Positions 9,001 through 27,000 of a stretch of 32,000 bases of DNA are shown here, piece by piece. The translations under genes were made by a program, and so were the position numbers. The notes below the pieces were generated by a model. It was not told where the DNA came from, did no database searches, and saw only the letters and a program-made list of their open reading frames with translations. Position 1 is the first letter of the stretch, and every line of letters begins with the position of its first letter. The stretch is from Candidatus Omnitrophota bacterium (GTDB taxonomy: Bacteria > Omnitrophota > Gorgyraeia > Zapsychrales > JANLHA01): positions 1,200,001 through 1,232,000 of the forward strand of contig OY759724.1 in assembly GCA_963662715.1 (NCBI GenBank), written 5' to 3'.

Positions 9001-12000
9001 TCTCCCCGCGCGGATCCGCGTTCCACATCCGGCTCAATAACTCTCCGCTCTCCAGCACGCTCTTCGCGTCCTTCGGCGTCAGCAATGTCAGATACAGCCC
9101 TTCATTCCCTTCAAAATATTCATGCAGTTTCCTCGCATACTCCCCTTCCTTCGTCTGCGCCTTCCGCTCTGCTTTCGTGTACGAATAGTGCAGGTGCACA
9201 TACCCCAGCTCCTGATTCGCCTGCTGGTTCGCAAACATCTGGTTCGCCACATACAGCGGCGACGGATACGCATGCCGCGGCGTCCCAAACAGCTCAATAT
9301 TGATCGGCGCCCGCAGATACTTCACATCCGCCAGCTTCGGCTCCGGCTTGTAATACACGCTTCGTCTGAACATCGTCTCGATCGGCGTTGTCCGCACCTT
9401 ATCCCACAGCTCCTCATCCGTGATCCCGCCCTCCGGTACATTCAACGCCTTGCGCCAGTACAACGCATTTGTTGGCTCATCATACAGGTAATCCACAACA
9501 CTCCGACCTTCCGGCAGCACCAGCTGATGCGTCGGAATCCAGATATACCGGCTCGCACTGCTCCGCTCATCAAACGTGAACCGCACCGATGACTGCAGCT
9601 GCAGCCCCAGCTCTTCCCTGCGCTCTTCTCCGAAACCTCTTTCTTTCAACCCGGCATCCGTATAGGTCTTCAGGCCCGGGAACGCGAACGTCCAGCCCTT
9701 GTACCACCAATCCAGCGGCTTGACATCCATCCCCAGGATATGCGGCATGATAAAATGCGTGAACTGGTCACCCTTCTTTTTGGCGATGATATACGCCCCG
9801 AACTGGATCGGTTTGGCAAATCCTTTCACCTTGCGGCTGAACACTTCTTCGATCTCATTGAGCCGGTGCGGCCCGTTCCACGGCCGCGGACTAGTCTCCC
9901 TCTCTTCGATCGGCGAAGAAGTATGATTGTTCATCAAACTCTCTTGGAAGATCGGATTGATCCTCATCAGTTCTGCCCTAACCGCTTGATGCTTCATCTT
10001 AAACGGTATCTGCAGTAAGATATCAATAAAATCAGGTCTCAGAAAATATTGCCAAACGGCCGAATGATACTTCCCGGGGCTTTCATGAATTTGCAGGATA
10101 AAATCCCTCCAAGGAACAAATTGCATGCCGTTGACTTCTGCCGTTTCCACCCCTCTATTCAGCAGGGCTTCCTCTTCTTCAGTGATAATGTAAGAATATA
10201 AGAATGAGGTTTCTCTATTCATTCCTTTTGCCGATTCATAATAGAAAACATCTCCTTCATATTTCTGCGTCTGTTCGTATTGACGGCTTCCGATCTTATA
10301 GAACAGCTTATAAATCCTGTATAGCCGCAGGAAATCCAACGGCATAACGCCAAGTTCTTCCTGGAATTCACGCTGAATCGCCTTGATTCCAGCTTCCCCT
10401 ATCCGGGGATGTCCTGTGACAAACAAGCCTAAACGTCCCTGATAATCCTTTTCTTTGCGCTCCTGCAGGGCCAGGCGCTGTCCGTCTTCTGTAATGCCGA
10501 GGATGTGATCCGTTCGATGATGTGTGCCGTCTTGGTGCATAGACCTTAATGTCTTTGCGACGCCCGTGGTTTTCAACCCTGTCGGTTCAAGGACATCAGA
10601 AACTTCACCGATAACAGGGCGGAGGGCCAGGATCAGCTTCGTTAAACTGGATGTCCTGATTCCCAGCTTCCTCGCCAAATGACGCAAAACAACAGCATCC
10701 TGTTGACCAAATGCCTGAATAATTTGTCTCTTTAACTCAGCATCCGCCTTGACAGGACTTGAAATAGACTCTCTATTCAGGGCCAGAGCATCCCGTTTAT
10801 TATCCGTCATAGCGCTGCTTACGGCTTCTCTTCGATATCCGATATACGCTGCCGGTTCGCCGTCCACGTTAGACATCTTCAGGGCTTTTCTTAATATCCG
10901 GTCCATCTGAGTGGCGGATGTCACCCCGACCTCCCTGATAACCTGAGGTGTTACGCGGACAACTCGCCCTCTTTCTCCCTGCGTTTCTCTTTCAACCCAT
11001 TTCAAGACCTCACGTTCCCGGGCACCCAAAACCTGACCTTCCGGCTTCTTGGCTATCAGCTTTAACGCGTTCAGTTCAACGCCGTTGGTCACATCTTCCA
11101 CCAATAAAGCGCCTTCTTCCGGCAGGAGATACAGGACGGTGTTTTGATCCAGCTGCGCTAAGGCCTCTTCCTTCGTTAAGAGACGGGCATCAGTGTTCCG
11201 GTAAATGTTGCCCTTTAATCCGGCTAAAATCACCCGCGCTTCATAATGGCGCAAACCTTCTTCCGGCTCAATGCCGCGGGCCCATAAGATTTCATTCAAT
11301 GTCTGCCCTTTCTTCAAGGCATGAATCAGCTCCCGGTGAACAATCCCCTCTGTTCCTTCCCCAATCACCGAAGCGTCCTTGCGCATGCCAATGTCAGAAA
11401 GAGCATTTTCCGGATCATAATTATCACCGAGCACCAGGACCTCCTCAGGCCGGATATCAGAGAACCGGCGGTCGACATAATCCCATACCCGGGCTTTCGA
11501 GAGATGTTGCGCCACCACCCGTAAACGGTATGTGCCGTTGGTCACAACCTCGACAGGCAGGTCAGCCTCGGCAAAAGCCGTTCTCAGGACGTCGATAGCC
11601 ATGTCTCTTTGAAGTTCGCTGTCGTAATAAAGGGTGAAAATGCCGTCTTCTCTGTTTCCGATATGGCTCGGCCTTATCGTATCTAATTCCCAAATGATTT
11701 CCTGAACAACCTCGGCCTGTTCTTCCGTCAGAAGAGGTTCATAATCCGTCAATGGTTCCGTGCGGATTCCCCGGGCATCCGCCACGAGGCGGTAAGCCGT
11801 GTGCCCGGAAGCGGCGAAGAAGTAAATATTGTTTAATACAGATGTATCGATATCCTCAGCCGTTAAGTACTGGCGGATAGGCTCTAAGAAAAAGTATTCA
11901 ATTTCTTCAATGTTCTGCTGGGTCACCAGGCCGAAAATCACGCCGTTTAATAACTGCTCGACAACGGCCCGGATGACCTTGAAGCGAAGCGGCGTTAAGG

Positions 12001-15000
12001 TAGCGGCTAATGTGCCGTCGTAATCCGAGAGAATCATGCGCACCACCGGACGGGCCATGTGATACAGTTCAAAATATCTGCCGTTCAAAACATCGGCCAC
12101 GCGGTCCGGATTCGTATGCATGACATAAGGTCCGGCGACCGGCTTTTGGCCATTCTCGCGTAAATATCTCTCAATGCGTTGACTGAGCAGTATTCGAAGG
12201 ACATACTCCGTTCTTTCTTCAAGGATGTCTTCATTCATTAAATGCGCTGCGAGATCCGCCGCCCACTCATCAATGAGATTGTGTCTGAAAATACGGTCGG
12301 TGACATCGGCGATAATGGTATGTTCGGCTTTTCTGATAATATCCTGTTCACCGGATGAGCGCCGGTTCAGCGCCAATTCGAATAAGGTCCTGATGCGCGC
12401 AGGGTGAAGAGTTTTCTGAACCGTTTGAATACCCTGAGCAAAGTCCCCGAACACTCCGCCTACCTGCACTTCCCTGGTAACGCCGTCTTTCGCCGGTGAT
12501 TCACTCAAGGCGAGAATAATGACCCTCTTGGCTCCGGCATTGAGGAGCAGATACTGCAGTTCAAGTAATGTCAGACGGCTGCCGGCATGGTCATCGAGGA
12601 CCACGACGGTCTTGTCTTTGACATCTTCCGGCCGTTCCACGGCATAAGACTGAACAACATTAAGAGCCTTGCCCGGCAGACTCTTGACTTTCTTTTGCTT
12701 TTGAGCTGCTGTCAATTTCGTTGCGACATCGTTGCGGACAGGCGCCCCTAATGTCTCGGCTAGAGTTTCTGCCAGCGGAAGGAGCTGATTATACTGTCCT
12801 TTCATCTTCGGCACCGGAACGATATAATCCACCTGATCCGGCCGTACGCCGTGGGCAACGATCACCTCGGCCAGTTCTTCGGCATATTCCCGGCCTAACT
12901 GCGCCATGGCAGAATCATCTTTTTTCGCCTCAAAGTATCTGTTGGACACCTCATCAACAGGGTATAACGGATGGCTGCGGGGATACAGGCGCATAGGTGC
13001 GACGGAAGATCTTTCCGTTTCTTTTCCGCTCATTAATCCGGCAGAGCTGTCTAACAGGGCAATACCTTTTTCGATCAACTCGGTTGTCCAGTAGAACCAG
13101 GTGTCGGCCGTTAACTGATTCATATACGTCGAATCCGGGGTGTCCGCCCCGTTCTGCTGAACTGTTAAAGCATTAAAAACACCGGCTTTGACAAGGTCAT
13201 CGTTGGTCGCTATCGATATTCTCCGGATAAGCGTTATAAACGGCGCGAGTCTCCTGGCCTGAGCTGCAGATACACCGGCTTGCGTTTCATGCAGAATATT
13301 CTTGAGGATTCTTATCTGCTCTCTGAGAGGACGTCCGGGATATAATTCATCCAGGGTACGTCTATACAATGCGCCTAATTCCCCTTCCTGATAAACCCGT
13401 TGTTTGAAGACTTCAAAAGCCAAAGCTAGGCCGAGCCATGTGCCCGCAAATTCCCGCTGAGCTCTTTGTCCGGCGGTGCGATAAGCCGCTTCCGTGACCT
13501 GCTTGATGCGTCCTCTGGTCTCGCTCCAGCGGAAGAACGGCCCGTCTTCTTCCAACAATCTTCGATCCACCTGGGTTTCTCCCCGAAGGATATCGGCAGA
13601 GTTTCCTGTCGTTTCAAACGAAGCTATCAGCTCTTCTGTTGTGACCGGGCTGAATCTCGGGCCGGCCGGAGTCTGGATGACCCGGACCAATCCTTGCCGC
13701 CGCGACACAATCCATTCACCGTCCTGAATATCCGAAAGAAGGACTTCTCCCGACGAAGCGGACGGCTGTTCGGGGGCCAATGTCCGGTCACCGTTAAAAT
13801 TCTCCAGGAGATTTAATCTCTCATCGAGAAGGGTTCGCAGTTCTTCGCGGTCGCCCAATCCGAATTCATCTTCCACGGTGAGTTGCTGTCTGAAAGACAT
13901 ATTACGCCGGATAGCCGTCCAGCTTTCCAAGGCTCTCCACAAACTCCCGACCGTCTGCTCCCGGGACTCTTTCCGGGCGTTCAGGTCAGATAACATCTGA
14001 TACACTTTTGCCGCAACCAGGTATTCTTCATCCGTTGCTGTGCGCAGCTCCCCTTCCAGCGTCGCGGCATACGGGCCGGAAAGCCATTCAAGGAGGCGGG
14101 CGAGCTGTTCTTGCGATTCAAGAGACGGCATAAGGTTGAATTTCAGCATCTGTTCAACGACGCTCGGTAAGATAAAGTCTGCTTCACCGATAATATGCGC
14201 CCGATGCGCGAGCAAGTCCTGATAACCGTTAAATGGATCCTGCAGAATAGGATCATCGGATTTGTCGTCGAAAACAAGCATCATCCGGTTTATCGTCAAA
14301 TCAGAAGCCTCAAAATTGTAATCGCTGACCTTGCCGAAATTCCTTACCGGGATATCCAGCTTTGCCTGTAATGCCTGATGGAAACGGCTGAGTGTTTCCG
14401 GTTTCACGTCCTCAGACATGAGATAACCCAAATGCTCCGGTCTTTCGCCTCTTAAAAGATCCCTGACCATCCAGCCGTAGAGGAAGACGCTTCCTTTCAC
14501 GCCTTCTTCGGCCACGGTCTCAATAAATGTCCTGATCTCACGAATTTCGATGGTATCTGTATCAAGCCTTGTTAATCCATATTTATCCCGGTAAACTTCC
14601 ACCGGAGAACTGACCGGCGCCAACACATCTTTAATATTTATGGTCTGATAATGCTCATCCACATTGACCGGGACAGCCGACATGATGGAAACAGCGCCGC
14701 GCGTTGTGCTTTCAAATTTCCGGATTGAGCCGGCCGTGGACCGCGCCTGCTCCGCCAGATAAGCCCGGTATTCTTCCTCGCTTAACGGTGAGGAAGACAT
14801 ATACGTTAAAGCGCCGACCGGTGAAGAGGTTATCTTAACGGCAGATGTTTCCACGGACTGAGCCGCTTTCCAGGCTGCATATTCTTCAGCCGTGAGCGGT
14901 GAAGAACTCATGAGCGTCGAAGCGCCGACCGGAAAATCTTTTTCCGCGGTTCTTATCACCAAGTTTGGTTCAATCATCCTTAATGTTGACGGGGACTCAT

Positions 15001-18000
15001 TGACGCGAGATGCGTTCTGTTTCCATTGACCGGCTTTCCGGACGAAAGACTGCTCTAACTCGGTATATTCTCCGAAGAAGGCCTTAACCATCGCGACAAA
15101 TTGATTCCAAAGCCTTAACAAGGATTCGAGGAACGAGCCCTCCCGCATGATATCAGCGATAGAAATAACAACGGTTTCTTTTGTCTCCTCCTCATCTTCC
15201 ACCGGGACAAATCTCAAAGCCACTTCCGCTTTACCTGTTATGTAAGCTTTTGCCAACGGAACTTCTGTGATCGATGAAAGGGACAGTCCCCGTTCAGGGA
15301 CAGGCCTTGTTAATTCTGTTGTATTCTTTTCCAGCGGGCTGGAAGAATCGTTTCTTTGATTCCGCTCAATAGAGATAGGATCGTCAAGGCCAAATCTATT
15401 GAGCATTTGGGATGCCATACGATCACGATATATAGAATTCTTCTGGGCTCTTCGATGCAATTTAAATAACAGGATAAATGTACCCAATAATGCTAATATG
15501 CCTGGGATCTCAAACATCAACCTTGTATACTGTCCAGAAAAATCAATCTGCTTCAAATCTATATCGTATTCTCGAGCAACTTGCTGTGCTGATTCTTCAA
15601 CCGTCTTCCCTTCAAAGATATTTCTTATAAATTTCCACCCACTCCCTTCCTCCAACTGCTCAAACTGAATGGCAATCACGGCCCTTTGATAGCCAGTTTC
15701 TCTCGGGGTTCCTTGTAAATCTTCTGAAATAATTCGTAGTAATTGATTATAAATTGACTCGTCAATACCCAATTCAAAATGCCGCAAATAATCTATAGCA
15801 TAAACAATTTTGTGTTCCACAAATCCGAGACCTCTTGACAGAGGATACAGATTGTGTGCTGTCTCATGGGCAACCAAAGCCCTGAAAGCTTGCTCCGAAG
15901 GAAGATCTTTCTGTCTTAAGAAACCGATGTGATTGTCATTACCATGCCCGTGCGTCACAAAATTCTTTGCTATAGGAGATGTTATCTCATGAACCCTATC
16001 CCTTTGCTCTTCAGATAAGTATGGAGCGACCTTGGATATTAACGATCTCTGTTCTTCAACGACTATGGCAGCTTCCTCTCTATCAAAACCTCTGGACACG
16101 AGTCCTTCCACAGAAGATGATGTGTCATTGGCAAAGGTTCGGGAGAATCCGAACAACACCATGACAAACGTTGATATCATCAACAGCGTCTTCAAAACCT
16201 TCTTAATACCAGAAGAAGACAGTTCCCGTTCAGGGACAGGCCTTGTTAATTCCTTTAAGGAACTGCCGGTGGTAACCGCATCCCCTGTCTCACCCTTTAA
16301 CGCAGTTACCACCGCATATGTTCCTTGTCCCTTCACCCTTTCGTTGTTTGTTGATGAAAGGGACAGTCCCTGTTCGGGGACAGTCCCTGTTAATTCTGTT
16401 AATTCCTGATTCTCTATCGGACTGGAAGACGCGTCTCCAATGATTTTTCCGAGTAATTTTCTTGCATACGCAATTGCCTCGTCCTGGTCAATAAATTCAG
16501 GGCTGGTCGCAATCGTAATAATGGAAGCTCTTCTAGCGAGCTGAGCAAAATAATCCACCGCCACATCTTTTTTCTGAGCACTTAATCCTCTTAAGACATC
16601 AAGATCGACATCCAGCACGTTAAAGTCAAGTTCAGCCGCGTCAATATTTGCCCCTTCTTTGATCTTATATCTTAGTTCGTCACGGACCATCAAATGGGCT
16701 TTACGGTTTTCTGCGTTGTACATAAAATGCCATTCCGTGAAGAAGCCATTTTCCATAAGCGGAGCGATAAAGCCCTCGATTCCCATGACATCCTGTGAGT
16801 GTCGGTCAATTGTCGCTAAATCTAAATCGGTCTTATAGAACAAATCTTCCTGAGACTCGCGGTACCGCCGGGTCATCTCGGCATCGGCGTGAGCGTCGAT
16901 GTGCAGAATTTTGTTGGCCTTTGCCTTGATACGTCCTTCCTGAAGCATGAGCCACCAGAAGGAATAAGCATAATTATGATAATCCATCACCATCACAACA
17001 CGGTTATCCGGCAGGGTCATAACCACCTTATTTTTCATGCCAATCGTTTCGATGTGTTTGGCCGGCAAGTTCGGATCTTTCGGACTGCGGTAAATATCCG
17101 GCTGAACATCATCGAGGGTGCCGTTAAAGACCCATCCTTCCGCCTGCCATTTCTGGTCCACCGGGCTGGAAGATGCTTCCGGTGCTGCCGGCTTCAGGCT
17201 TCCTTCAGGTGTGAAGCTGAATTCTGCCGGAATGAAATCAATATCCTTACGGTTCAGATCGACCCGGGAAGCATACCGGGCAGCAAAAGACTCCTGCGTC
17301 AGGCTCCACAATTCAACCAGTTCCGGATTCGTCCGGAAGAACTCCGGACCGTTAAAGATCACTTCTCCCCGGTTGTTATAAAGAATGGCTTTTTCCAGCT
17401 TGGAGCGGGATATCGATATCTGTCCTTTGTACATCCTGACGATCTCCGGCTTATCAAAATACACATGGTAGAATTCTTTTCTGATATACTCTTCAATCGT
17501 GTTTCTGCCGCCCCGGATGACTTTGGCCGGGATCTTGTTATATTCATCCGTAAAGACAACATACTTGGTGTTTTCCTGGCCGTCGGCAAGGTTAATAATG
17601 ACGTCCTTGGCAAAGAGGAACCCGAATCTGTCCTGTGATGACAATTGTTTGAGCCCTCTCAGCGCAAGCCCTTCCGGCATGCCTTTCGTCTGCACCAGGA
17701 CTTTAAATCCGAGGTTCGTTGCAATATCATGCTCGGCCCAGTCGGAAAGATGGACCAGATCTTCATCGAGATTCCACAGCCAGTCTCGCTGATACGTGAA
17801 GCCTAAGGAATCCAGGCCATGCTGTTCTCCGTGCCGGGCCACATCATAGAAGTTCACCATGGCGGTTATATTAACCTGGCCTGCCTGCGCATAAATATCC
17901 TCTATCGGCAGATGCTCCTCTTTTCCGCTCCAAACTGAATATTCCCGGCCTTCGATATTTTCTTCAACTTTCCCGCCGTAATCGATAGTGACCACAAACC

Positions 18001-21000
18001 CTCTCTTCAATGACCTTGATATGATCTGCTGCCATGCCTCAATAGCCGGCTGGACAAAAACTTCGGTTCCTTCCGGCAGAGTAACGCCCAAACGGTCCAC
18101 GTAATCTTCGAGTTGTCTGCTGGACAGTTCGCCGATTTCATCCCGATAAGTGCCGTCCTGCTCAACCGTGTAGATTTCTTTAAATTCTCCCTCAACGGCT
18201 TTCAGCCGATGACCCGGCAGGTCATCGATCAACTCGTTGGACAGGAACACGCCTTCGATATCGTGAAGATCTTCTTCGGTGACATCAAGCACGGACTTCT
18301 CAATCCAGCGGACTTTACCGGCGAATTCGGCTAATTTTTCTCGCTGATTTGTCCTTAAGTTAGAACTGAATTCCACAATGACATATTCCAGAGCCTGGAA
18401 TAACTGCGGCTGATATTCCTTGAGATAGCTCATGATATTCAAGGCATATGTTCCGTTCCCGGCACCCATCTCCACAACGCTGAACTTGGCCGGCCGGCCC
18501 ATCTTGTTCCACATTTCGCTAAGCTGATACCCTGTAGAATATCCGAAATATTTCGCTGTTTTGCGGTCTTCAACATAGGTGTCAAAATCTTTTCCGCGTC
18601 CGATCTGCGCGATCCGGCCGTAATATTCTGTCTGGGCCTGCGACATAAACTCGGCAAATGTTTTTCTGTTCTCAATCGGTGAAGAAGATTTCTTGCCGGA
18701 ACCTCGATTGCCTTTTAATGTCTTGACCGCGACCATGGATCCGGGGATCCTTTTTTCCAGAGCGTCGACAATCGTCTGATTCTGGCCTACCGGGGTGAGC
18801 ACCTTAATCTTCCACTCCGTAAAGCCGTCTTCGATCTCCCGGCTCTCGATCTCTTTGATGGACATATTCATCTCGGCGATCCGCTCAGAAACGAGACTTT
18901 CCATGCCCGGCCACGGCTCGGTCACAATCGTAATCAGGCGCGGGATCGTCGGCATAGCCTTAGCGCCCTTAACCTTGAGGATGGCCTGCACATCGTCCTT
19001 CATTCCGTTAATCTCTTCAGCCGGGATATCCATATCGATCACCAGGTTATCCCCTTCCACTTTCTGTTCATGAACGTTGCCGAGATGCTGCGTGATGACC
19101 GCCACGATATCTTTAAGCAGACCGATACGGTCATACGGCAGATGCAGGGTCATCTTGCCATAGGTCTCTTTTGCCTTGCCTTTTTCGTAATACACGTCAA
19201 CGACATCAAATTTGACATGTCCTTCTTTAAAGTCCAATTTGGCCAATTTAACATTATCATTACCGACAAGCTGGAAGAACTCATCCTGTTCTTCCAGGAG
19301 GCCCCAGCGGAGGTACAGGCTGCGCACAAGACCAGCGTTCTGCAAACCTAAGCCTAAGGCCGACAGGGAATCCCGTCCTTTTTGCGCGGCATTGAAATCA
19401 AATTTCTCCAGCAGAAGCACTGTTCTTAGATTCATAGCGTTACGCAGGATAAAGCGGCGGTTTCTCTCCAGATAACTTCTGCTGTCTCCCGGTTTACCCG
19501 GACGGACCGGAGTCAGCGGATTAATGCCAACAATATCCCCGTTCTGCAGCTCATACTTCTCGCTTCTTATTTGACGGCCCCTGATTTCATAGGCGTCAAA
19601 ATCATTGCGGATTCTTAAAGTTTCAACCCCTAAATATTCGTCATCCAGTTTATGAATATCTTTTCTGGCAGCGATGTCCGCCGGGATACTGCCTTTCTTG
19701 AGTCTCAAAGTCTTGAAAGAATATTCGTGTCTGCCTTTACGGGTCGGCGGTTCATGGACCTGGACATAAACCCAGTCGCGAATGGATTCCAGCAAGCGTT
19801 CAAAATCAGCATCAAAGTCACCGGCGATATCAACCTGGCGGAAATTAAATTCCTGGTTAGGATACATTTCAACCATCTTGTAGAACCAGTGGGCCGCTTT
19901 GTTCCCGAAGCGCATAAGATTCAGGTTCGTCTCGTTCATAATCTTAATCTCAAGCGGCACGCCCTTGACCTTTGTCCATGATTTTGCCGGCAGCATAAGG
20001 CCCATATGCAGACTGTCATAACGGTCGAATTTCGCAATCATGCGGTGCTTGGTCCGTTTAGGAATGATGCTTCCGATGTCGACAAAAATTTCATCGCTAT
20101 ATTCATCAATAAGCGTCAAGGCCTCCCAATAATCCTGGATCTCCCCTTTCACGACCACATGCAAACCTAACAGGTCATAGAGAGGATCATCCTTGGCCTT
20201 CCTCTCCTGCCGTTCGAATTTCTCCGCGATAGAGTAAACGCTCTTGACGCGGGAGCTCATCGAGAACTTCACTCCGCTTTCTCCAAAAATCTCTTTCAGC
20301 CGTTGCTGGAGCTTTCTCTTAACCTCCAGCAACGTCCCCCTGGCTTCTTCATACGTCATGCCGAGCAGTTCCTCTTCGATCTTCCGCTTCATCTGAACAT
20401 ATTCCTGAGGATGGGCGACCATATAAATTTCATTACGCAGCATGGAGGAGAGATCATCCCGGCCGAGACGTTCGGCTAACGGTGCGAAAACGTCTTCAAC
20501 GACCTCTTCAAAATATTTCAATTGTTCCTGCGCCGCCTTATCAATTTTCCTGCCCCGGAACTTCTGAATGGTGCTGTAAACTTCCTTGAAGATCTGCGAC
20601 ATGCCCTTAGCGGAACCGGCCAACTGGACGATCATCTCCATATAATTCTGAATGGAGTCGCCGCGCTGATACACAGGGATGTCGGTAATGCTCGGGACCC
20701 GCGCTAAGCCCTTCTTCACCGCCTTCTTCTTGATCGGCGAAGAGGAATGTTGCTCTCCATAGAATTCATCCAAAGTTATCATCCTGTCTGTCGGAACCTG
20801 TGCCGGCCGCCAGGCCACAATGACAGGAGTCATGATCCCCGGAGTCGTCGGCAGGTAGCCCCGCAATTCTTCAAAGACGCGTATTTCGGTCAAGCCTATA
20901 CTGCGCAGATAATCTTTGTAGCGCTGATAACTGGAGACCGCCATGTCATCGTGTTGGATGCGGACAAAAACCATGGCCGGGCCTTTGACCGGAAGCAGTT

Positions 21001-24000
21001 CGGGCAACGACCTCTTGATCTCATCAAACACACCTTCGGCAAAGAACGGCTCATTCAAAGTGATGACGTTGAATTGATGCCGCAATTCTTTCTCAAAACC
21101 GGCCTCTTGAGCTGACAGGCCATAAAATTCCGCCTCTCCCTCGTCCGGACTGGTCAACGGGTCAATGCCGGTCACTCTCTTCAACAGCTCCATAGCTTTG
21201 CTGCTGGCGGCTATGGTATTGGCAAACGCATTATCACCCGCTCCGATATCAAGGAGGGCGGCATCTTTTCCAACATATTGTTCGATCAACCTTAAGAACG
21301 TTGTGTCTCCTTGGGTCCACTCTTCGCCGCTTAACCGGGCCTCAGCAAGAACCCCTTGCATCCTCTGATCAAAACTTGCGTTCCCTGAGGAGCGGTTGAG
21401 CATCGGAGAACTGACAGCGCCCGTTTGAGTTTCACTAGAAGCAATAGAATCGTCTCCTGAAGCAATTTTTGCTTCAATTGTCCGGGTCATCGTTTCAACA
21501 AAATATTCATTCATATCCAACGGAGTTGAGCTCATCAACGTGGAAGCGCCGACGCTGCTCTTGACAACTGACTTGATACTGCTGCTGACGGTATCGGCTT
21601 CTTTGCTTGCCAGGTAAGCCGCATATTCTTCGGCGCTTAACGGCGCAGAGCTCATTAACGTGGAAGCGCCGACGGTACTCTTCGCTGCTTCCTTGATACT
21701 GCTGCTGACGGTATCGGCTTCTTTGCTCGCCAGGTAAGCCGCATATTCTTCGGCGCTTAATGGCGAAGAGCTCATTAACGTGGAAGCGCCAACCGATGTT
21801 TTTCTCTCAACCGGCTGAACCTGGACTTCATCAATCAATCGTAAGCTGCTTCCCTGGGCCACCCGGGCAGCCGGGGTAACAACCTTGGTGTAGACATGGC
21901 TCAGAGCCCCGAACGCTCTCATAAGGAACCTCACCAGGAAGTCCAACAAGAACCTCAACAGCATGGCCATTCTCTTCATCAGGGATGCCATGGTGATATA
22001 AATCACTTCCTTTTGCTCAACTGTTTCATCGACAGCCGGGAAGACCAGGCTTATCTCGGCATTATCCCGAACCGCGTCTTTTCTGCCCGGGACAATGATC
22101 AGGGCTTTCTGCCAGGCAGCAAGGCCTTCATAGGCACGGCGGCCGGCTGAGAGAAGACCGGTTTCCACCACGTGGCTCTGATGAGAAGAAACCGGCGAAG
22201 AAACTTCTTCCAGGACCGGGGAAGAAGAAGCCTTAGGAGCAACCTTGTAAGGTGTGAGCGTCCAGATAACAGCATTAATTCTTTCCTCATTACCATAAAC
22301 TAATTTCAGCAATTCTTTTTCTTCATCCGTGAAGCTGATCTTTCCGGCTAATTCTTTGATTAGAGCATCCCTTTTCTTTGCGCTGGTTTCGGCGGCCGTC
22401 GCAATAATTTCCTCTAAATCCTGGGCCAAGGCAGCTGAATTCTCTTTGATCTTCTTCTCAATCAAGGCAAGCGCCTCTTCCTTCTTGGCTGCCAGGAAGG
22501 CTTCTGTCAGAGCCTTCTCCAACATCTTTTTGGCCTCCTCTTCATCATTACCGTTTAGATCCTCTAAGGCAGTTCTCAATTCTGCGCTTAAGCGGTTCTG
22601 CCAGATATCGTCCTTCTTTTCCGCGATATCTGATTGATTCTCAATCTTCGCTTTTCTCAACAATTCATCCGCATCCAATAATTTCTCTACGGCTTTCTCC
22701 TGCTCATCTTTATTCTGCTTCTCCATTTCCCCGTACAATGCTTGTCTGGCCTTAGCTCTGTCATTATCGCGGGTATCTTCCAAAGCTGCCCGGAAGGTCT
22801 TCGGAGATTTATACCAGACATCCTCTGTGACTACGTCCGTGACACCGCCCTTGGCTTTCCGGACTCCACGGAATTTATCCAAAAGACGCTTTAATAATTT
22901 CTCCGCCATCTTTTTCAACCCTGTTTTCTTGTTGTCCAGAACTGTTTTCTGTTGATCCTTTTGGGCTTTATCAATGTCAGCAAACAGCTTTTCTTTGAAT
23001 TTATCCACATTGTTTTCACTCACATCCAGCAGGGCCTGTCTCAGTTCACGATCCAAATCAAAGACTTCCAACACTGTCCTGCTGACAAATTCTTTCTTAA
23101 GCTGGGAAATTTTGTCTCCTTTTTCCGTCTTTGCTATTCTTGCCCGGGTTTCGCGCAGAGCTTCAACAACCTCCGGATTTCGGCTGATGGCTTTGATATA
23201 TCCGTCATAGTTCTTATCTTCTATGACCTTTTGAGCAGCCTCTTCGGCTTTCTTCTTAATCTGCCCGAAGAGTTTTTCTGCGGCCTTCTGGTGAGTTACG
23301 TTGCTCAACTCTCTACGAACCTGGGATAACAGTATCTCCGAAATGCTCTCGACATATGAATCCGAACTGACAAACAGTCTGTCAACGCTTTTCAGTAATG
23401 CATCTTCCATGCAACCGTCCTTGGCCTTTTCAAAAATCCCTTCTATTTCTGCCAACAATTTATATTCTTCAGAATCTCTGTCAACGGAATCAAAGGCCTT
23501 TCGGATAACAGCAATAAATTCATCCGCTGTCGTTCTGGCTTCCATGTATTCGAGTAGTATCGTAATATTACTGAATAACTGTTCTTTAACCGTGCCGGCA
23601 TAAATCGGCCCAAATTTAATTCTAATCTGCCTTAACCATTCTTCTCTCTTATTGGTTTCTAAGACTTCTTTATATTTGCTTACTAAGGCTTCTTGGGAAG
23701 CGTCCGGGCCTAAAGCTCTTAATGCGTTCTTCACCCTCTGGAACAAGACATCATGTGATTTCAGCTCCAGTCCGGTTAAAGACATATACAACTGAACTAA
23801 CTTTCTGAAGTCTACGCTTGATTCCGAACTCATCAGCATATTGATAAATCTTCTCTGTTCCGTCCCGTCTTTTTTCAATTCAATCTGCCTGAAGGCGTTT
23901 ACAGCGGCCGGGTTCTTCAAAACCTGACCGGCCACATATCCGGTGTCGCTGGCCTGGGCAAACATCATTTCGAACAGGAACTCCTGGGCTCTTTCTGCAT

Positions 24001-27000
24001 AAACATTAGTCTCCTCCTTAATCTCGGCATCTTTTTCATCCCCGCCCTTTAATATCACCAGGGCCTTTCTCAGGTCTTCACTTAACAACTCTTCTCTTTT
24101 CCAAACAAAATTATTAATAAATTCAAGGCGTCGCGATTCCTTTTCGTCTTCTTCCTCGGTAGCGCTGATCTTTTCCACGGCTTGCTGGAACAATTTAATT
24201 GTTTGCTTCAAAATATGATCCACGGCTTCGCTTAAATTATCCTCAATAAATTTCTCGCTGGACACCTGATCAGTAACATTTTTCCCTAAATCACCGCGGA
24301 TCTCTTCAGCCCGCTTGACTTTTTCCTTGGTCCCGGTGAACAAGCCGCTAAAGAAAGATCCGGCAAAAATACCTGCGCCGGCAAAAGCGAATAAACCGAG
24401 GAAGCCGGACGGAAGGAGAGGCAACAGGAACGAACTGATCAGCCACATGCTCACTCCGGCTCCTGCGAACCAGCCGAAGACCTTGACCTTAGGATTATCT
24501 AATCCGCGTCCTGAACCCGAGCCTCCTTTACCGCCGTTCTGAGGATTATCTGATCCTTGTCCCTGGCTTGAGCCCGAGTCTCCGTTATCGTTGTTCTGAG
24601 GAGCCGGCCCGCGGGTATCGTCTCCCGGGAACATCTTTCTTAACTGTCCGCCGATCCAACGCGGCACGTTGACAATCAAGCCCAGGATCAGGCCAAGGAC
24701 CGTCAGTGTCGACATGACCAGAGTTCCTGTCATGTAGAGATTCATATGATCTCTTAAGTCCTGAAGCTTGAACTTGTTCGTCTTCATAAGCGGATAAACG
24801 ATGATATAAAGCATCAGCGGGATATACGGGTAACCGCCCATAAGCAGGGATAGGCCGACGATAACTGCGGTGGTTAAGGCCCATTTCTTGAATCCGATCT
24901 TCTTGAAGAACTGCGGATAATGGGCTGTGAAGTGAACCTTGGCCCAGGTCTTGAATCCGACTGTTGTCGGAGTTGAACCCGGATTCAGGAGGAACGGCGC
25001 AAACATCGAAGCAAAGGCCATCAAGCTCGGGAACAGCGACCATATGGAACCAGGATTCATCCAGAGGATCGTACCGCTGATGACAAAGAGGATGCTCGGG
25101 ATGACCCAGCCGTAGCCTAATAAGTTCACCTGTGCGTACAAGTCGCCCTGAGTAAATAATTTTTTCGAATCAAAGCCCTTCGTCGGTTTAAACGGTACGA
25201 CAGTGTCGCGGCCTGGCCGACGTCCGGTAGCGATATAATCCGCCCGGTTCACCAAGGCCTTCTTCACACCGACCGAGAACGCGTTATAAACCAGGGACAT
25301 GTAGGTGATCGCCAGAAGCGGGAACAGTTTCAGGAACTTCACTGTACCGCGGACCAGACCTTTCTCCAGAACTGTCTGCAGATAACCGGATGAGGTGATG
25401 GCCTGCGATAAGAAGAAGCCGACCAAACCGAAGATAAGCTCGCTCGGGAACCCGGCAAACAAGCTCATACCGAACAATACGATGGTTAACAGGTATGTGG
25501 TATTGGAAATCACGACAAAAGGCTTGCGCAAGAAGTAGCCGATCGAAGCGACGAAGTGGCCCAGGGAGCGGCTGAAGCCGACGACCTTGGATTTGTTGTG
25601 CTGCCGCAGCATATGACCAATGGCCTGTTCAGCGGCACCAGCCCCGAATTTCTCGGAAATACCGACCAAACCAACGTAGACCGCTTCACGGCCTTTACCG
25701 GCCTGCATCAATTCCGTGTTCGACACTCTTTCACCCATGAGCGTGGCTTTGTAGGCGCCGAAGATATCTTCATTGACCCACGGAGCGCTGAAGAGACCTA
25801 ATTGTCTGAACGATCTGCCCCGGACAAAGTCAGGGTGACCGTAATGGTAGCGGATGCCCATGAAGTTCAGCACTCTCTGGACCATGGTAACGAACGTATG
25901 GTCACCGAAAGCGTGCACCGCACCGGCCGGAGAGAATTCGTCAGTAAAGATATCTTCCGGAACACCGACGATCGCGACCTGATCATCCCGGCGGAACTGT
26001 TCCATGACGTTCGGAGCCTTAAAGGTTTCTTCAAGGTAAAGATCCTGGTTCATGTCCATGACCATGACGATCTGGCCGCGGGTGAAGCGCAGGATATTAT
26101 TCTGGTTCATCGGTTTACCCTGACCGGCAAACGGATGGCTGTGCAGGCGGATCGGGTTGAGGCGGACCACGCGGCCGATGGTGTTGCCGTCCCGCTCAAA
26201 TTTATGCATAACATCCTCACCGTCCTGTACTTCTCCTGCGCGGTACTCAACCAAGGCACCGGCAAAACCGTTGATCCTATTGTCCGGATTGTGCAGGTAA
26301 GCCATTCTCATGGACGGGTATTTCTTCAGGAGCAAGTGAATATCCTGTATCAATAAATGGGCTTTAGCACTGTCTTCTTGCAGCAAGTCACCGTAAGGCT
26401 GGTCACCGGCGACAAACTCAAACTTCTCGTCAACTTTTGCGAGGATCTTTGCTTTGTAATCATATGCGTTATGGAGTTTCTCCTGTTGGCCTTCCAGTTC
26501 CTTTCTCAATTTTTCAAGTCCGGCGCGGCGCTCAGCCTTGGCTTCCTCATCTTCCGCAGCCTCTAATTCCTCTTCTGCCGTGGCGATCTTTTCATATTGA
26601 CTGAATATGTCATTTAGGACTTCTGTTAAGGCAGCCACAGCCTCTATTTCAGCTTTAAGAGCTTCTATTTTCTCCTTCTGCTCTTCAATCTGCTGTTCTA
26701 CAGCGGCGATCTGGATATTTAACAGCTGCTTTTCTTGCGACTCGCTGTCTTTCTTCGCGTTCATCTTTGCTATTAACTCTTTCAATCCGTCTTCCTGTTC
26801 TTCCAGGATTAATTTTTCATGGCCCATTTCCGCTTCGGCTTTCGCTTTCCGGCTCTCCTGGTCTGCCAGCAGCAAGCCTTCCAGAGTCGGGAAGTTGACC
26901 TTGGCCAAGAATTCATACATTTCTCTGTAGCGCATAATACCGCGGACCGAACGGGACAGCGGCTGGTAGCGGTAAGACACCCATAACCGGACTTCAAACT

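Follow-up and report, generated by a model that had tools for sequence, protein, structure and literature searches.

A hydrolase-less RelA/SpoT homologue module within a giant multi-enzyme protein of a Candidatus Omnitrophota bacterium

Analysis of a 32,000-nucleotide stretch of a Candidatus Omnitrophota genome (the window; contig OY759724.1, positions 1,200,001 to 1,232,000) showed that a giant multi-enzyme protein, anchored in the membrane, contains at residues 3757-4437 a shortened form of a long RelA/SpoT homologue (RSH). This enzyme module consists of a vestige of the HD hydrolase domain, a connector, a synthetase, a TGS-like domain, a helical region and two ACT-like units. RSH copies built into Omnitrophota giant proteins represent a previously undescribed group.

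RSH enzymes are a central switch of bacterial stress physiology and have repeatedly been recruited as toxins. The Omnitrophota are ultra-small, often predatory bacteria, and to our knowledge essentially no function has been assigned to their giant proteins. The module offers a concrete, testable predicted enzymatic activity within such an opaque protein. The radiation of RSH copies fused into Omnitrophota giant proteins (about 40 clusters at 50% identity) also offers a natural experiment in the trimming of a long RSH, showing how far the HD domain, the zinc finger and ribosome coupling can be removed with the synthetase kept.

The giant reading frame and its modules

The initial annotation placed the module at window positions 18689-20731 within a giant protein, and this was borne out: on the reverse strand the region translates without stops as residues 3757-4437 of a frame of 10,666 codons, which occupies positions 2-31999, is open at both ends and is the only frame of the window without stops. 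A plus-strand reading of 18689-20731 was ruled out by stops throughout. The limits of the module match two SSSPI linkers, at residues 3752 and 4438; the corresponding pattern S[SA]SP[IVLM] was observed 13 times against 0.05 expected. The features discussed below are as follows.

2..31999 (-): giant multi-enzyme protein, internal piece of 10,666 codons (only stop-free frame; Pfam domains)
20732..20746 (-): upstream SSSPI linker delimiting the RSH module, residues 3752-3756 (S[SA]SP[IVLM] motif count)
20552..20695 (-): pseudo-HD remnant from the C-terminal half of the domain, residues 3769-3816, 'PSITDIPVYQRGDSIQNYMEMIVQLAG...IFKEVYSTIQKF' (alignment; model helices 27-38 and 41-57)
20282..20539 (-): helical connector between HD vestige and synthetase, residues 3821-3906, including FAPLAERLG (aligned to residues ~143-230 of 6yxa)
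19862..20269 (-): RelA/SpoT synthetase with nucleotidyltransferase fold, residues 3911-4046 (PF04607, Rel alignments, conservation, Foldseek)
19517..19834 (-): TGS-like domain, a beta-grasp with a hairpin insertion, residues 4056-4161 (hhalign; model strands 320-403)
19262..19480 (-): helical region corresponding to the long-RSH alpha-helical domain, residues 4174-4246 (hhalign; model helices 420-489)
18968..19252 (-): first ACT-like unit (beta-alpha-beta-beta-alpha-beta), residues 4250-4344, 'YDRIGLLKDIVAVI' (ACT_4, model, Foldseek)
18716..18949 (-): second ACT-like unit, residues 4351-4428 (Pfam ACT, model residues 595-671, Foldseek)
18674..18688 (-): downstream SSSPI linker, residues 4438-4442 (S[SA]SP[IVLM] motif count)
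17795..18529 (-): Methyltransf_28 domain (MidA/NDUFAF7-type SAM methyltransferase), the next module downstream (Pfam E 3.5e-51)

Eight Pfam families exceed the cut-off in the 10,666-codon frame, and the domains along it include Glucan_synthase, RelA_SpoT, Methyltransf_28, UPF0489, Pribosyltran, NUDIX and Glycos_transf_N; a Radical_SAM match falls below the Pfam cut-off (21.9-24 bits vs 29.5). A hydropathy scan revealed transmembrane clusters in the giant protein, with about 7 hydrophobic segments between the glucan-synthase domain and the stretch containing the RSH module, for which the transmembrane parity is ambiguous. The frame has the features characteristic of Omnitrophota giant multi-enzyme proteins: it exceeds 10,000 aa, has numerous transmembrane segments and strings together enzyme domains that are unrelated to one another. 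The protein is also poor in cysteine, with 9 residues in 10,666 aa and none between residues 2864 and 9657, so that the RSH module has no Cys at all.

The module is preceded by a weak methyltransferase-like stretch (E 0.086) and followed by Methyltransf_28. The latter is a conserved downstream partner, as the same order was found in the relatives L001, P0012 and P0007. The module had also been described as lying next to a Nudix domain and a CCA/PAP-like nucleotidyltransferase, which is not supported: the only Nudix box is at residue 7196 and the only nucleotidyltransferase-like motif at residue 9122, about 2,760 and about 4,690 residues C-terminal of the module end, respectively. A nucleotidyltransferase adjoining the module was not confirmed either in the window or in the upstream domain of relative P0001. 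For the NUDIX and phosphoribosyltransferase modules, NCBIfam gave only sub-threshold matches of generic, ComF-like and IPP-isomerase/MutT-like kinds. A specific link of these modules to the RSH module is speculation, attractive because the Nudix enzymes MutT and NudG degrade (p)ppGpp and Gpt and Hpt bind it (PMC5845004).

Domain architecture of the RSH module

The synthetase domain was identified by Pfam PF04607 (RelA_SpoT) with E 1.5e-10 and 41.8 bits, against a curated cut-off of 27. The module also matches NCBIfam spoT_relA (E 2e-18) and, in a phmmer search against the PDB, Rel of B. subtilis (6yxa, E 4.5e-8). All synthetase motifs quoted in the initial annotation are present, namely RVKSVYSIAEK, YDLLGLHVVV, YDSLH, EIKIMN and AAHWFYK. 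The FAPLAERLG helix was likewise found, at module residue 82, so that it is preceded by 81 residues rather than the ~75 given before.

The statement that the HD hydrolase domain is missing needs a refinement. There is no hydrolase and no H-D dipeptide anywhere in the module, but the domain has not gone cleanly: about 48 residues (module residues 13-60) are a vestige of its C-terminal half. They align with the segment 'LPYxP..xxIQNQMNMxIQLA..VMLLVFADKLQTI' of relatives having a full pseudo-HD domain, and, in canonical Rel, with 'ENxRKMxxAMAxD.RVxxIKLADRLHNM'. An intact HD domain was not detected. The Pfam profile HD_4 matches the module by its last helix alone (profile positions 125-154 of 156, E 0.18), and this match falls in the connector, whose helices (65-150) are modelled by AlphaFold2 with pLDDT above 90. 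With a local HD profile derived from canonical Rel sequences, no part of the 10,666 aa was matched at E<=10.

The region after the synthetase, taken alone, aligns with canonical Rel by hhalign (97.6%, E 3e-12) over both the TGS domain and the helical region, and the AlphaFold2 model has a beta-grasp at this place. The proposed TGS domain is thereby supported; the Pfam TGS profile gave no match in the module. For the ACT assignment the sequence scores are below the cut-offs, while the fold is supported by the model and by Foldseek; two ACT-like units are seen instead of the single one described. The first matches Pfam ACT_4 (E 1.1e-4, 23.2 bits vs a cut-off of 27), the ACT domain of Rel (hhalign E 0.011) and, by Foldseek, the tandem-ACT proteins 2nyi (1.4e-5), SerB2 and 1u8s; the second matches Pfam ACT (E 0.014; hhalign E 0.047) and also tandem-ACT proteins by Foldseek. 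The zinc-finger domain of long RSH is Cys-rich. No such domain was found in the Cys-free module, and the second ACT-like unit occupies its position in the model.

The AlphaFold2 model of the module was obtained from an alignment of 21 sequences, with pLDDT 78.7 and pTM 0.74; how the domains pack against each other is uncertain (Foldseek global TM 0.24-0.33). Its best Foldseek matches are Rel of B. subtilis (1e-13), RelA of E. coli (1e-12) and full-length SpoT (2e-12, ~730 alignment columns). Weaker matches include CapRel (4e-4), RelQ (5e-4) and RelP. Being nearest to Rel, RelA and SpoT by both sequence and fold, and having a synthetase with a TGS and ACT-like tail and no hydrolase, the module agrees with the synthetase-only, long-RSH-like architecture initially proposed for it.

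Active-site residues

The key residues of the synthetase are R3917, K3919, S3923, K3927, D3942, G3945, H3947, Y3994, H3998, E4017, K4019 and the AAHWFYK motif (4035-4041). The catalytic residues, which the initial annotation had marked for checking, are kept: R161/K163/K171, D186, E261 and Y238 of the G-loop in module numbering. In FaRel2 the equivalents of R161/K163/K171 bind the ATP phosphates (triphosphate) and that of D186 binds Mg2+, and the adenine NH2 group is also contacted (PMC11782079). Conservation of these positions was evaluated across 40 divergent family members, whose identity is otherwise 20-35% and in which the most frequent residue of a position reaches 0.35 on average. R161 is present in 39 of the 40, K163 in 40, K171 in 39, D186 in 40, E261 in 35 and W282 in 37.

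The base-contacting side of the site is different. Against the canonical beta2 motif 'D-x-x-[AG]-x-R' and beta5 motif 'E-x-Q-I-R-T', the window has H3947, K4019, M4021 and N4022. Two positions with donor-adenine contacts in FaRel2 (PMC11782079) carry other residues, R being replaced by H in beta2 and Q by K in beta5, whereas all 56 sequences of the canonical set have R, Q and R at the beta2/beta5 positions. The R of 'QIRT', invariant in that set, is M in the window and hydrophobic in 40/40 relatives. The active site is non-canonical, given these replacements of the adenine-contacting R and Q and of the 'QIRT' R.

The position that distinguishes the acidic EXDD from the basic RXKD type, also marked for checking, reads R-T-K-H and is of the basic type. 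The window copy retains this basic R-x-K motif, along with a Lys at position -4 relative to the Tyr; the basic acceptor patch is lost in most relatives (Q/E/E for R/K/K). Since the acceptor-side residues (RxK, the K at -4 and H242) vary even inside the window's subfamily, the acceptor cannot be read from the sequence. The TGS fold binds tRNA CCA in Rel (PMC7797070); the His of this domain is present in the window (DIHK) and is N or D in relatives, which speaks against a conserved activation by deacylated tRNA on the ribosome.

Relatives and evolution of the family

An exhaustive phmmer search over 1.84e9 representatives returned 43 matches below 1e-10, and about 40 related clusters (50% identity) were found. 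Long fragments of 5,805, 4,759 and 7,967 aa are the best matches, and the named relatives are all giant-protein fragments of Candidatus Omnitrophota. A scan of genome contigs revealed one locus, L001, 56% identical to the window and labelled 'uncultured Planctomycetales'. A scan of metagenome contigs with degenerate patterns recovered canonical Rel genes only (22-30% identity) and no close relatives, and a word-index protein search with the subfamily alignment gave nothing new, with P0011 and P0016 not recovered.

The family forms a clade separate from canonical Rel (bootstrap 100/100). Most of its members have a full-length HD fold that is catalytically dead, being devoid of the H-D, E-D and RLHN motifs. 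The window's subfamily (bootstrap 84/100) has lost the N-terminal half of the HD domain as well. This truncated form occurs in three lineages, 24-57% identical, and in independent assemblies (L001, P0001, P0162 and P0016); each copy is immediately preceded by a linker rich in Ser and Pro, which reads 'ASSPNP' in P0016 and SSSPI in L001/P0001, P0162 and the window. The invariant H191/K263 pair together with the bootstrap value supports a single origin of the truncated form. In this family the hydrolase has decayed stepwise, dying first and then being half deleted, with the synthetase chemistry residues staying near-invariant.

Predicted function

The most probable reading of the module is an active, hydrolase-less ATP-dependent pyrophosphokinase, regulated by its TGS/ACT tail and not by the ribosome. 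ATP-Mg2+ would be bound through R3917, K3919, S3923, K3927 and D3942, and, with E4017, the beta,gamma-pyrophosphate would be moved to an acceptor that stacks on Y3994 and receives it at its 3'-OH. This acceptor would most probably be a purine nucleotide, so that the product would be an alarmone of the (p)ppGpp or (p)ppApp type. The assignment is uncertain; the window copy keeps the R-x-K motif of the basic type and the Lys at -4. The product would not be removable by the module itself. Control would most likely lie with the TGS/helical/tandem-ACT tail, which would sense a partner or a small ligand, and not with the ribosome: the module has no zinc finger, and the His by which TGS senses tRNA CCA is not conserved in the family. 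The tandem-ACT proteins matched by Foldseek include ligand-binding ones, such as SerB2 with serine at its ACT domain.

Many domains of giant proteins have been predicted to lie outside the cell, and these predictions were called unreliable by their authors (10.1101/2023.11.21.568195). An extracellular placement would leave the module without ATP. A cytoplasmic location would agree better with the neighbouring modules, for which SAM and PRPP would be needed.

It is rather unlikely that the module is a pseudo-enzyme, in which the RSH fold would serve as an ATP-, alarmone- or partner-binding sensor controlling neighbours such as Methyltransf_28 without catalysis. The two most conserved motifs are indeed altered (DLLGLH for D..A/G.R and EIKIMN for E.QIRT), the acceptor-side residues drift across the family, the already dead HD domain gives a precedent for loss of catalysis, and the conserved pairing with Methyltransf_28 could reflect regulatory coupling. 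However, the residues needed only for chemistry (D186, E261 and R161/K163/K171) are kept in 35-40 of the 40 members despite an overall identity of 20-35%, and a pure binding module would have no need of D186 and E261 together. Moreover, the R-to-H and Q-to-K replacements are coupled and invariant in the subfamily, pointing to a remodelled rather than a decaying site.

A toxSAS-like effector, as suggested in the initial annotation, appears improbable. In this case the module would serve as the toxin part of a predatory giant protein and would reach the prey by delivery or exposure, acting by ATP depletion via (pp)pApp, like Tas1 and FaRel, or by pyrophosphorylation of tRNA CCA, like FaRel2 and CapRel. 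Consistent with it are a synthetase without hydrolase, the presence of predators in the host phylum and the implication of giant proteins of this class in predation (10.1101/2023.11.21.568195). The base-contact residues are also changed, and the basic acceptor patch is lost in most relatives, a reduced positive patch being what sets apart the tRNA-targeting FaRel2 (PMC11782079); the binding of tRNA CCA by TGS reported for Rel (PMC7797070) would fit as well. Nevertheless, the module groups with long RSH by sequence and fold (Foldseek 4e-4 for CapRel vs 1e-13 for Rel), and alarmone synthetases that accept nucleotides typically have the R-x-K and K(-4) seen in the window copy. Among stand-alone relatives the nearest, P0013, lies amid ordinary housekeeping genes with no antitoxin-like neighbour, and the module is flanked by SAM-dependent enzymes, not delivery domains. 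The Nudix and nucleotidyltransferase motifs on which the suggestion leaned are distant. PADLOC gave no toxSAS or CapRel match, only a weak and unrelated one to PDC-S33 (E 0.005). No immunity or antitoxin partner (Tis1, pZFD, SAH, Panacea) was found by Pfam, PADLOC and the HD profile within the 10,666 aa of a gene that continues beyond the window.

A wider proposal, in which we place little confidence, is that the giant-protein RSH modules may be a new functional class of pyrophosphokinases, combining an ATP-phosphate/Mg2+ core with diversified base and acceptor residues and having a non-canonical product, donor or acceptor. They might act in cis as second-messenger generators for the dozen modules on the same polypeptide, or as prey-directed toxins modifying nucleotides or tRNA. 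In the window's subfamily this diversification would consist of the coupled R-to-H/Q-to-K swap, together with a hydrolase half that has been lost completely. A non-canonical product or acceptor would extend the range of reactions known for the RSH fold.

An ordinary bifunctional Rel, with its HD domain missed through wrong boundaries, a frameshift or an assembly error, can be dismissed: an 'HD' dipeptide does occur upstream at residues 3683-3684 (RIQHDDMAV), but it lies beyond the SSSPI linker in a neighbouring domain with a Rossmann-type 'LLDIGAGDN' motif and only a weak methyltransferase match, and a hidden HD domain is refuted by the profiles, of which HD_4 matches by its last helix only, by the continuous frame, and by the repetition of the truncation in independent assemblies, alongside relatives whose HD fold has no catalytic motifs.

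Comparison with known systems

The giant proteins of Omnitrophota described previously, of the 'Archaeovorin' type (West-Roberts et al. 2023) or as 'multi-enzyme metabolic clusters' (2026 preprint), resemble the protein of the window in having a giant ORF, many transmembrane segments, and glycosyltransferases, methyltransferases, NUDIX and radical SAM domains on one polypeptide. About 5,700 giant proteins of at least 10 kAA have been described (10.64898/2026.06.07.730766). RelA/SpoT, (p)ppGpp and alarmones are not mentioned in the text of either paper, the 2026 preprint naming only 'HD-domain regulators', and neither the SSSP linker nor cysteine depletion is mentioned in them. In the literature searched, RelA/SpoT was not found in combination with Omnitrophota or with giant proteins, and the ppGpp papers among the matches listed did not mention archaeovorus.

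The stand-alone Omnitrophota RSH P0013/P0163 (697 aa, annotated as 'HD domain-containing protein') belongs to the same divergent family, with 29% identity over query residues 15-616. It shares with the module the synthetase, TGS and helical region, and also has a pseudo-HD domain. Unlike the module, it is encoded by a gene of its own, situated among housekeeping genes, and has a full-length dead HD fold and no ACT pair.

SAS are ~200-aa single-domain proteins regulated by oligomerisation. RelQ and RelP are hydrolase-less synthetases, as is the module, and were matched by Foldseek at about 5e-4 to 1e-3 with a TM score (target) of about 0.5. The module differs from them in its long-RSH connector and TGS-helical-ACT-ACT tail, its embedding in a giant ORF and its grouping with long RSH. 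The toxSAS and secreted RSH toxins (FaRel, FaRel2, CapRel and Tas1) likewise have no hydrolase, depart at base-contact residues and share a possible link to inter-cellular antagonism (PMC11782079). The long-RSH regulatory tail sets the module apart from them, and a partner of the antitoxin, immunity or pZFD kind was looked for in the 10,666 aa and not found.

RelA, the monofunctional long RSH of Beta- and Gammaproteobacteria, is likewise synthetase-only with an inactivated hydrolase, and follows the same order of connector helices, synthetase, TGS, helical region and ACT. It consists of pseudo-HD, synthetase, TGS, helical, zinc-finger and ACT/RRM domains, whereas the module has neither the N-terminal half of the pseudo-HD nor the zinc-finger domain, and has a second ACT-like unit instead. 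RelA has the acidic EXDD motif (PMC3153485), in contrast to the basic R-T-K-H of the module. The module differs further in the R-to-H change in beta2, the Q-to-K and R-to-M changes in beta5, and a TGS His that is not conserved in its family. Finally, RelA is a free protein, while the module sits in a polypeptide of more than 10,666 aa.

Anatomy of the RSH module

Window 18689-20731 (minus strand) gives a clean 681-residue translation, aa 3757-4437 of a giant protein; plus-strand coding of this interval was rejected, as it is full of stops. The synthetase motifs reported in the initial annotation are all present (RVKSVYSIAEK, YDLLGLHVVV, YDSLH, EIKIMN and AAHWFYK), the module contains no H-D dipeptide, and the N-terminus preceding FAPLAERLG is short, although it counts 81 rather than about 75 residues. 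The module matches Pfam RelA_SpoT (E 1.5e-10, 41.8 bits, cut-off 27), NCBIfam spoT_relA (E 2e-18) and, in a phmmer search of the PDB, B. subtilis Rel (6yxa, E 4.5e-8, Rel residues 143-414 aligned). Judged from these profiles, its RelA/SpoT relationship is far beyond chance.

An AlphaFold2 model, based on a shallow alignment of 21 sequences (pLDDT 78.7, pTM 0.74), predicts the following elements.

Predicted elements of the module (module residues, AlphaFold2)
27-150, helices
155-290, synthetase mixed sheet
320-403, beta-grasp with inserted hairpin
420-489, helical region
~494-587 and ~595-671, two successive beta-alpha-beta-beta-alpha-beta units

The best Foldseek matches in the PDB were B. subtilis Rel (1e-13), ribosome-bound RelA (1e-12) and full-length SpoT (2e-12, ~730 alignment columns), while RelQ, RelP and CapRel, a reference of the toxic small alarmone synthetase (toxSAS) type, reached no better than 4e-4 to 1e-3. 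Tandem-ACT proteins were also found (2nyi, 1.4e-5; the SerB2 ACT pair; 1u8s). Because the AlphaFold2 alignment included canonical Rel sequences, the tail was tested separately by a profile-profile comparison of the post-synthetase region of the family with that of canonical Rel. The match (97.6% probability, E 3e-12) spanned the TGS domain and helical region, which are thereby established at the level of sequence profiles. The ACT units gave E 0.011 and 0.047, and the predicted ACT pair rests on fold and sub-threshold sequence signals. A zinc finger is impossible in the module, since it contains no cysteine. The proposed long-RSH-like order of synthetase, TGS and ACT without HD holds in outline, the details differing in a vestige of the HD domain and a tandem ACT lacking a zinc finger.

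Active site

With residue roles as determined for the toxSAS-type reference FaRel2 (PMC11782079), the module keeps all triphosphate ligands (R3917, K3919, S3923, K3927 and R3930), the Mg2+-binding Asp D3942, G3945, the beta5 Glu E4017 and the G-loop Tyr Y3994. In a set of 40 divergent members of the family, the catalytic R, K, K, D and E are kept in 39, 40, 39, 40 and 35 sequences, far above the mean top-residue frequency of 0.35; on alignment, this pattern is the signature of retained chemistry. In Rel(Seq), D264 and E323 are essential for synthesis. The core residues that the initial annotation proposed to check are retained, alongside the above-cut-off RelA_SpoT match.

The nucleotide-base contacts are altered. 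The beta2 Arg, which stacks on the donor adenine in FaRel2 (PMC11782079), is conserved in only 15/40 family members and is His in the window, where the beta5 Gln is Lys; this His and Lys pair is found only in the truncated subfamily described below and is invariant there. The Arg of 'QIRT' is replaced by a hydrophobic residue in 40/40 family members, compared with Arg in 56/56 canonical sequences. At the acceptor-side positions that read R/K/K in Rel, most relatives carry Q/E/E; the window has R-T-K-H, with a Lys four positions ahead of the Tyr. In the RXKD/EXDD scheme (PMC3153485), to which the initial annotation referred, the module falls on the basic RXKD-like side, with the donor-base changes in addition. 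Since the acceptor-side residues vary even among subfamily members, the acceptor is not deducible from them. The alternative of a non-catalytic sensor module has these altered base contacts on one side and the retained core on the other, and is considered unlikely.

Loss of the hydrolase domain and family history

An exhaustive phmmer search of 1.84 billion representatives returned 535 matches, including 43 with E below 1e-10. Long fragments (5,805, 4,759 and 7,967 aa) predominated among the best, and every named relative among the matches was Candidatus Omnitrophota. Many relatives have a weak HD match (E 1e-8 to 1e-20) directly before the synthetase; in their alignment the H-D dyad has become H-[C/S/R/K/H/N], the E-D pair is gone and D-R-L-H-N reads A-D-K-L-Q-T-I, so that on sequence these are dead hydrolase domains.

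In the window, in its closest relatives L001 (a genome locus) and P0001, and in the database proteins P0011/P0162 and P0016, the N-terminal half of this dead domain is entirely missing. These truncated modules start directly after a Ser/Pro-rich linker with 'IQNYMEMIVQLAG...IFKEVYSTI', a segment homologous by alignment to the C-terminal half of the HD domain. The HD_4 profile detects just the last helix in the window's module, and a profile derived from canonical HD domains found no match anywhere in the 10,666 residues. The module does lack a hydrolase, as first proposed, but the domain is not cleanly absent, its C-terminal half remaining as a vestigial pseudo-HD.

Neighbour-joining sets the Omnitrophota-type modules apart from canonical long RSH enzymes (100/100). 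The five truncated sequences group together (84/100), and their clade is nested among branches in which pseudo-HD-bearing members occur. This nesting indicates that the truncation is an old, inherited architecture; an assembly artefact or recent lesion was rejected on the same clade.

The 7,967 aa giant fragment P0034 and its cluster-mate P0179 carry an RSH module and a second, separate HD match. In P0179 the pseudo-HD match (aa 397-592) is just upstream, with the module at aa 524-885; the separate match lies at aa ~6201-6364, ~5,500 residues downstream. A giant polypeptide with an RSH module can thus bear hydrolase-type domains at other places too; the 10,666 residues of the window showed none.

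The giant protein

One frame on the window's minus strand has no stop over 10,666 codons (base 31999 down to 2) and is open at both ends, and the longest open stretch in other frames is <=274 codons. The plus-strand GC skew is negative throughout, which fits minus-strand coding. Since the only stop-free frame runs off both ends, the giant protein is real and larger than the window.

Features of the giant protein (all minus strand; Pfam unless stated)
aa 826-1419, 2162-2554, 5265-5290, 5494-5512, hydrophobic segment clusters (hydropathy scan)
aa 1535-2177 (window 25469-27397), FKS-type 1,3-beta-glucan synthase (PF02364), E 2e-68
aa 3916-4042, RelA_SpoT, E 1.5e-10
aa 4491-4735 (window 17795-18529), Methyltransf_28 (MidA/NDUFAF7-type), E 3.5e-51
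aa 5002-5098, UPF0489, above cut-off
aa 6408-6507, phosphoribosyltransferase, above cut-off
aa 7160-7303, NUDIX, above cut-off
aa ~9844, radical-SAM-like stretch, below cut-off
aa 10333-10511, Kdo-transferase-like domain, above cut-off
aa 3258, 3410, 3752, 4438, 4943, 5191, 5552, 5698, 5735, 7753, 7937, 9333, 9802, linker S[SA]SP[IVLM] (motif count)
aa 1123, 2863, 9658, 9850, 9854, 9857, 9980, 10274, 10351, cysteines (residue count)

In its predicted domains, this architecture matches the multi-enzyme giant proteins of Omnitrophota (10.1101/2023.11.21.568195; 10.64898/2026.06.07.730766); the texts of these papers mention neither RelA/SpoT, ppGpp or alarmones nor the S[SA]SP linker. The glucan synthase match is in two parts (E 2e-68 and 2.8e-20), and the domain, in a bacterial giant protein, is bordered by transmembrane clusters (aa 826-1419 and 2162-2554).

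The hydrophobic clusters leave the RSH module within a ~2,700-residue stretch free of transmembrane segments. The ~7 hydrophobic segments after the glucan synthase domain are of ambiguous parity, and topology predictions for Omnitrophota giant proteins are called unreliable by their own authors (10.1101/2023.11.21.568195). The presumed need of neighbouring modules for SAM and PRPP points to a cytoplasmic compartment.

The linker motif, occurring 13 times where 0.05 are expected, separates recognisable modules and mostly reads SSSP-I/V/L with E or a basic residue next. 'SSSPI' copies at aa 3752 (window 20732-20746) and aa 4438 (window 18674-18688) flank the RSH module, and coincide with the boundaries given in the initial annotation. 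The motif recurs in P0034 (11 copies), P0012 and L001 (three each) and P0162, and is absent from other relatives; it may serve simply as a linker or mark a site of processing. Cysteine is extremely depleted (9 of 10,666 residues, 0.08%), which may explain the missing Cys-based zinc finger; three of the nine form the CxxxCxxC of the radical-SAM-like stretch (GCNRGCLIC; window 2429-2452). Relatives contain 0-0.1% (several) or 0.3-0.9% Cys.

A 120-nt tandem repeat (2.2 copies, 91% matches; window 21528-21790, aa ~3404-3491) encodes a 40-residue unit, 'VGASTLMSSSPLSAEEYAAYLASKEADTVSSSIK...', with related copies 2,300 residues downstream (aa ~5690-5750, window ~14750-14932), at the start of P0001 and in L001.

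Gene order and relatives

P0001, a partial protein from Candidatus Omnitrophota, is the nearest database match at the protein level (58% identity). L001 (56% identity), also a single ORF throughout, is colinear with window aa 3750-5215 (RSH, Methyltransf_28, UPF0489), and the order RSH then Methyltransf_28 recurs in P0012 and P0007. P0012 has a methyltransferase very close to that of the window (E 6e-192), whereas its RSH module, still with a pseudo-HD, is far more divergent (E 1e-17); this contrast suggests that modules change at rates of their own or are exchanged. Immediately preceding the RSH module, L001/P0001 have a domain of ~340 residues (aa ~110-445) with no Pfam match, and the window has a different stretch of ~250 residues (aa 3500-3756, window 20732-21502; Rossmann-like 'LLDIGAGDN', Methyltransf_23 E 0.086), which by comparison of domain order is evidence that modules have been shuffled in giant genes that are colinear elsewhere.

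P0013 is a stand-alone family member, a complete 697-aa gene with a pseudo-HD amid ordinary housekeeping genes (L082 7031-9124; Mrp-type antiporter or hydrogenase-like, Na+/H+ exchanger and polyamine genes). Omnitrophota may also use divergent, hydrolase-dead RSH as a free protein. P0009, P0013, P0015, P0018, P0019 and P0047 are of ordinary length (680-780 aa), with similar C-termini '...C-[SGA]-[SAN]-A-A', or '...RSA' / '...NMAA'.

Regulation and function

Long RSH enzymes dock on the ribosome through their zinc-finger and ACT domains. They are described as reading the A-site tRNA CCA end via TGS (PMC7797070). In the window the TGS 'IHS' His is kept, in relatives it is N or D, and the module sits tethered within a membrane protein. 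Small ligands are classically sensed by tandem ACT pairs; the Foldseek match SerB2, for example, has an entry with serine bound to the ACT domain. Together with the missing zinc finger, these features would favour ligand- or partner-controlled activity.

The initial annotation placed the module next to Nudix and CCA/PAP-like NTase modules. This link is unsupported: counted from the module's end, the Nudix box (aa 7196) is ~2,760 residues further on and the only NTase-like motif (aa 9122, Polbeta E 0.024) ~4,690, and the module's direct neighbours are the weak methyltransferase-like stretch and Methyltransf_28. (p)ppGpp can be broken down by the Nudix enzymes MutT and NudG and is bound by Gpt/Hpt (PMC5845004). 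As the window's NUDIX and phosphoribosyltransferase modules gave only generic, sub-threshold NCBIfam hits, a functional circuit with the RSH module is speculation. The suggested toxSAS biology, taken here as a prey-directed toxSAS-like effector, is an unlikely reading and not the one favoured by the similarity data; PADLOC gave no toxSAS-type match, and nothing resembling an antitoxin or immunity domain turned up in the 10,666 residues.

Overall, the best explanation, with somewhat better than even chances, is that the module would be an active, hydrolase-less RSH pyrophosphokinase within an Omnitrophota giant protein, under presumably non-ribosomal regulation. Its fold and chemistry are already known; the architecture and context, within an undescribed family, are new. 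RelA likewise has a dead HD hydrolase domain, as do the Omnitrophota relatives, but RelA carries EXDD at the motif position where the window has the basic, RXKD-like R-T-K-H.
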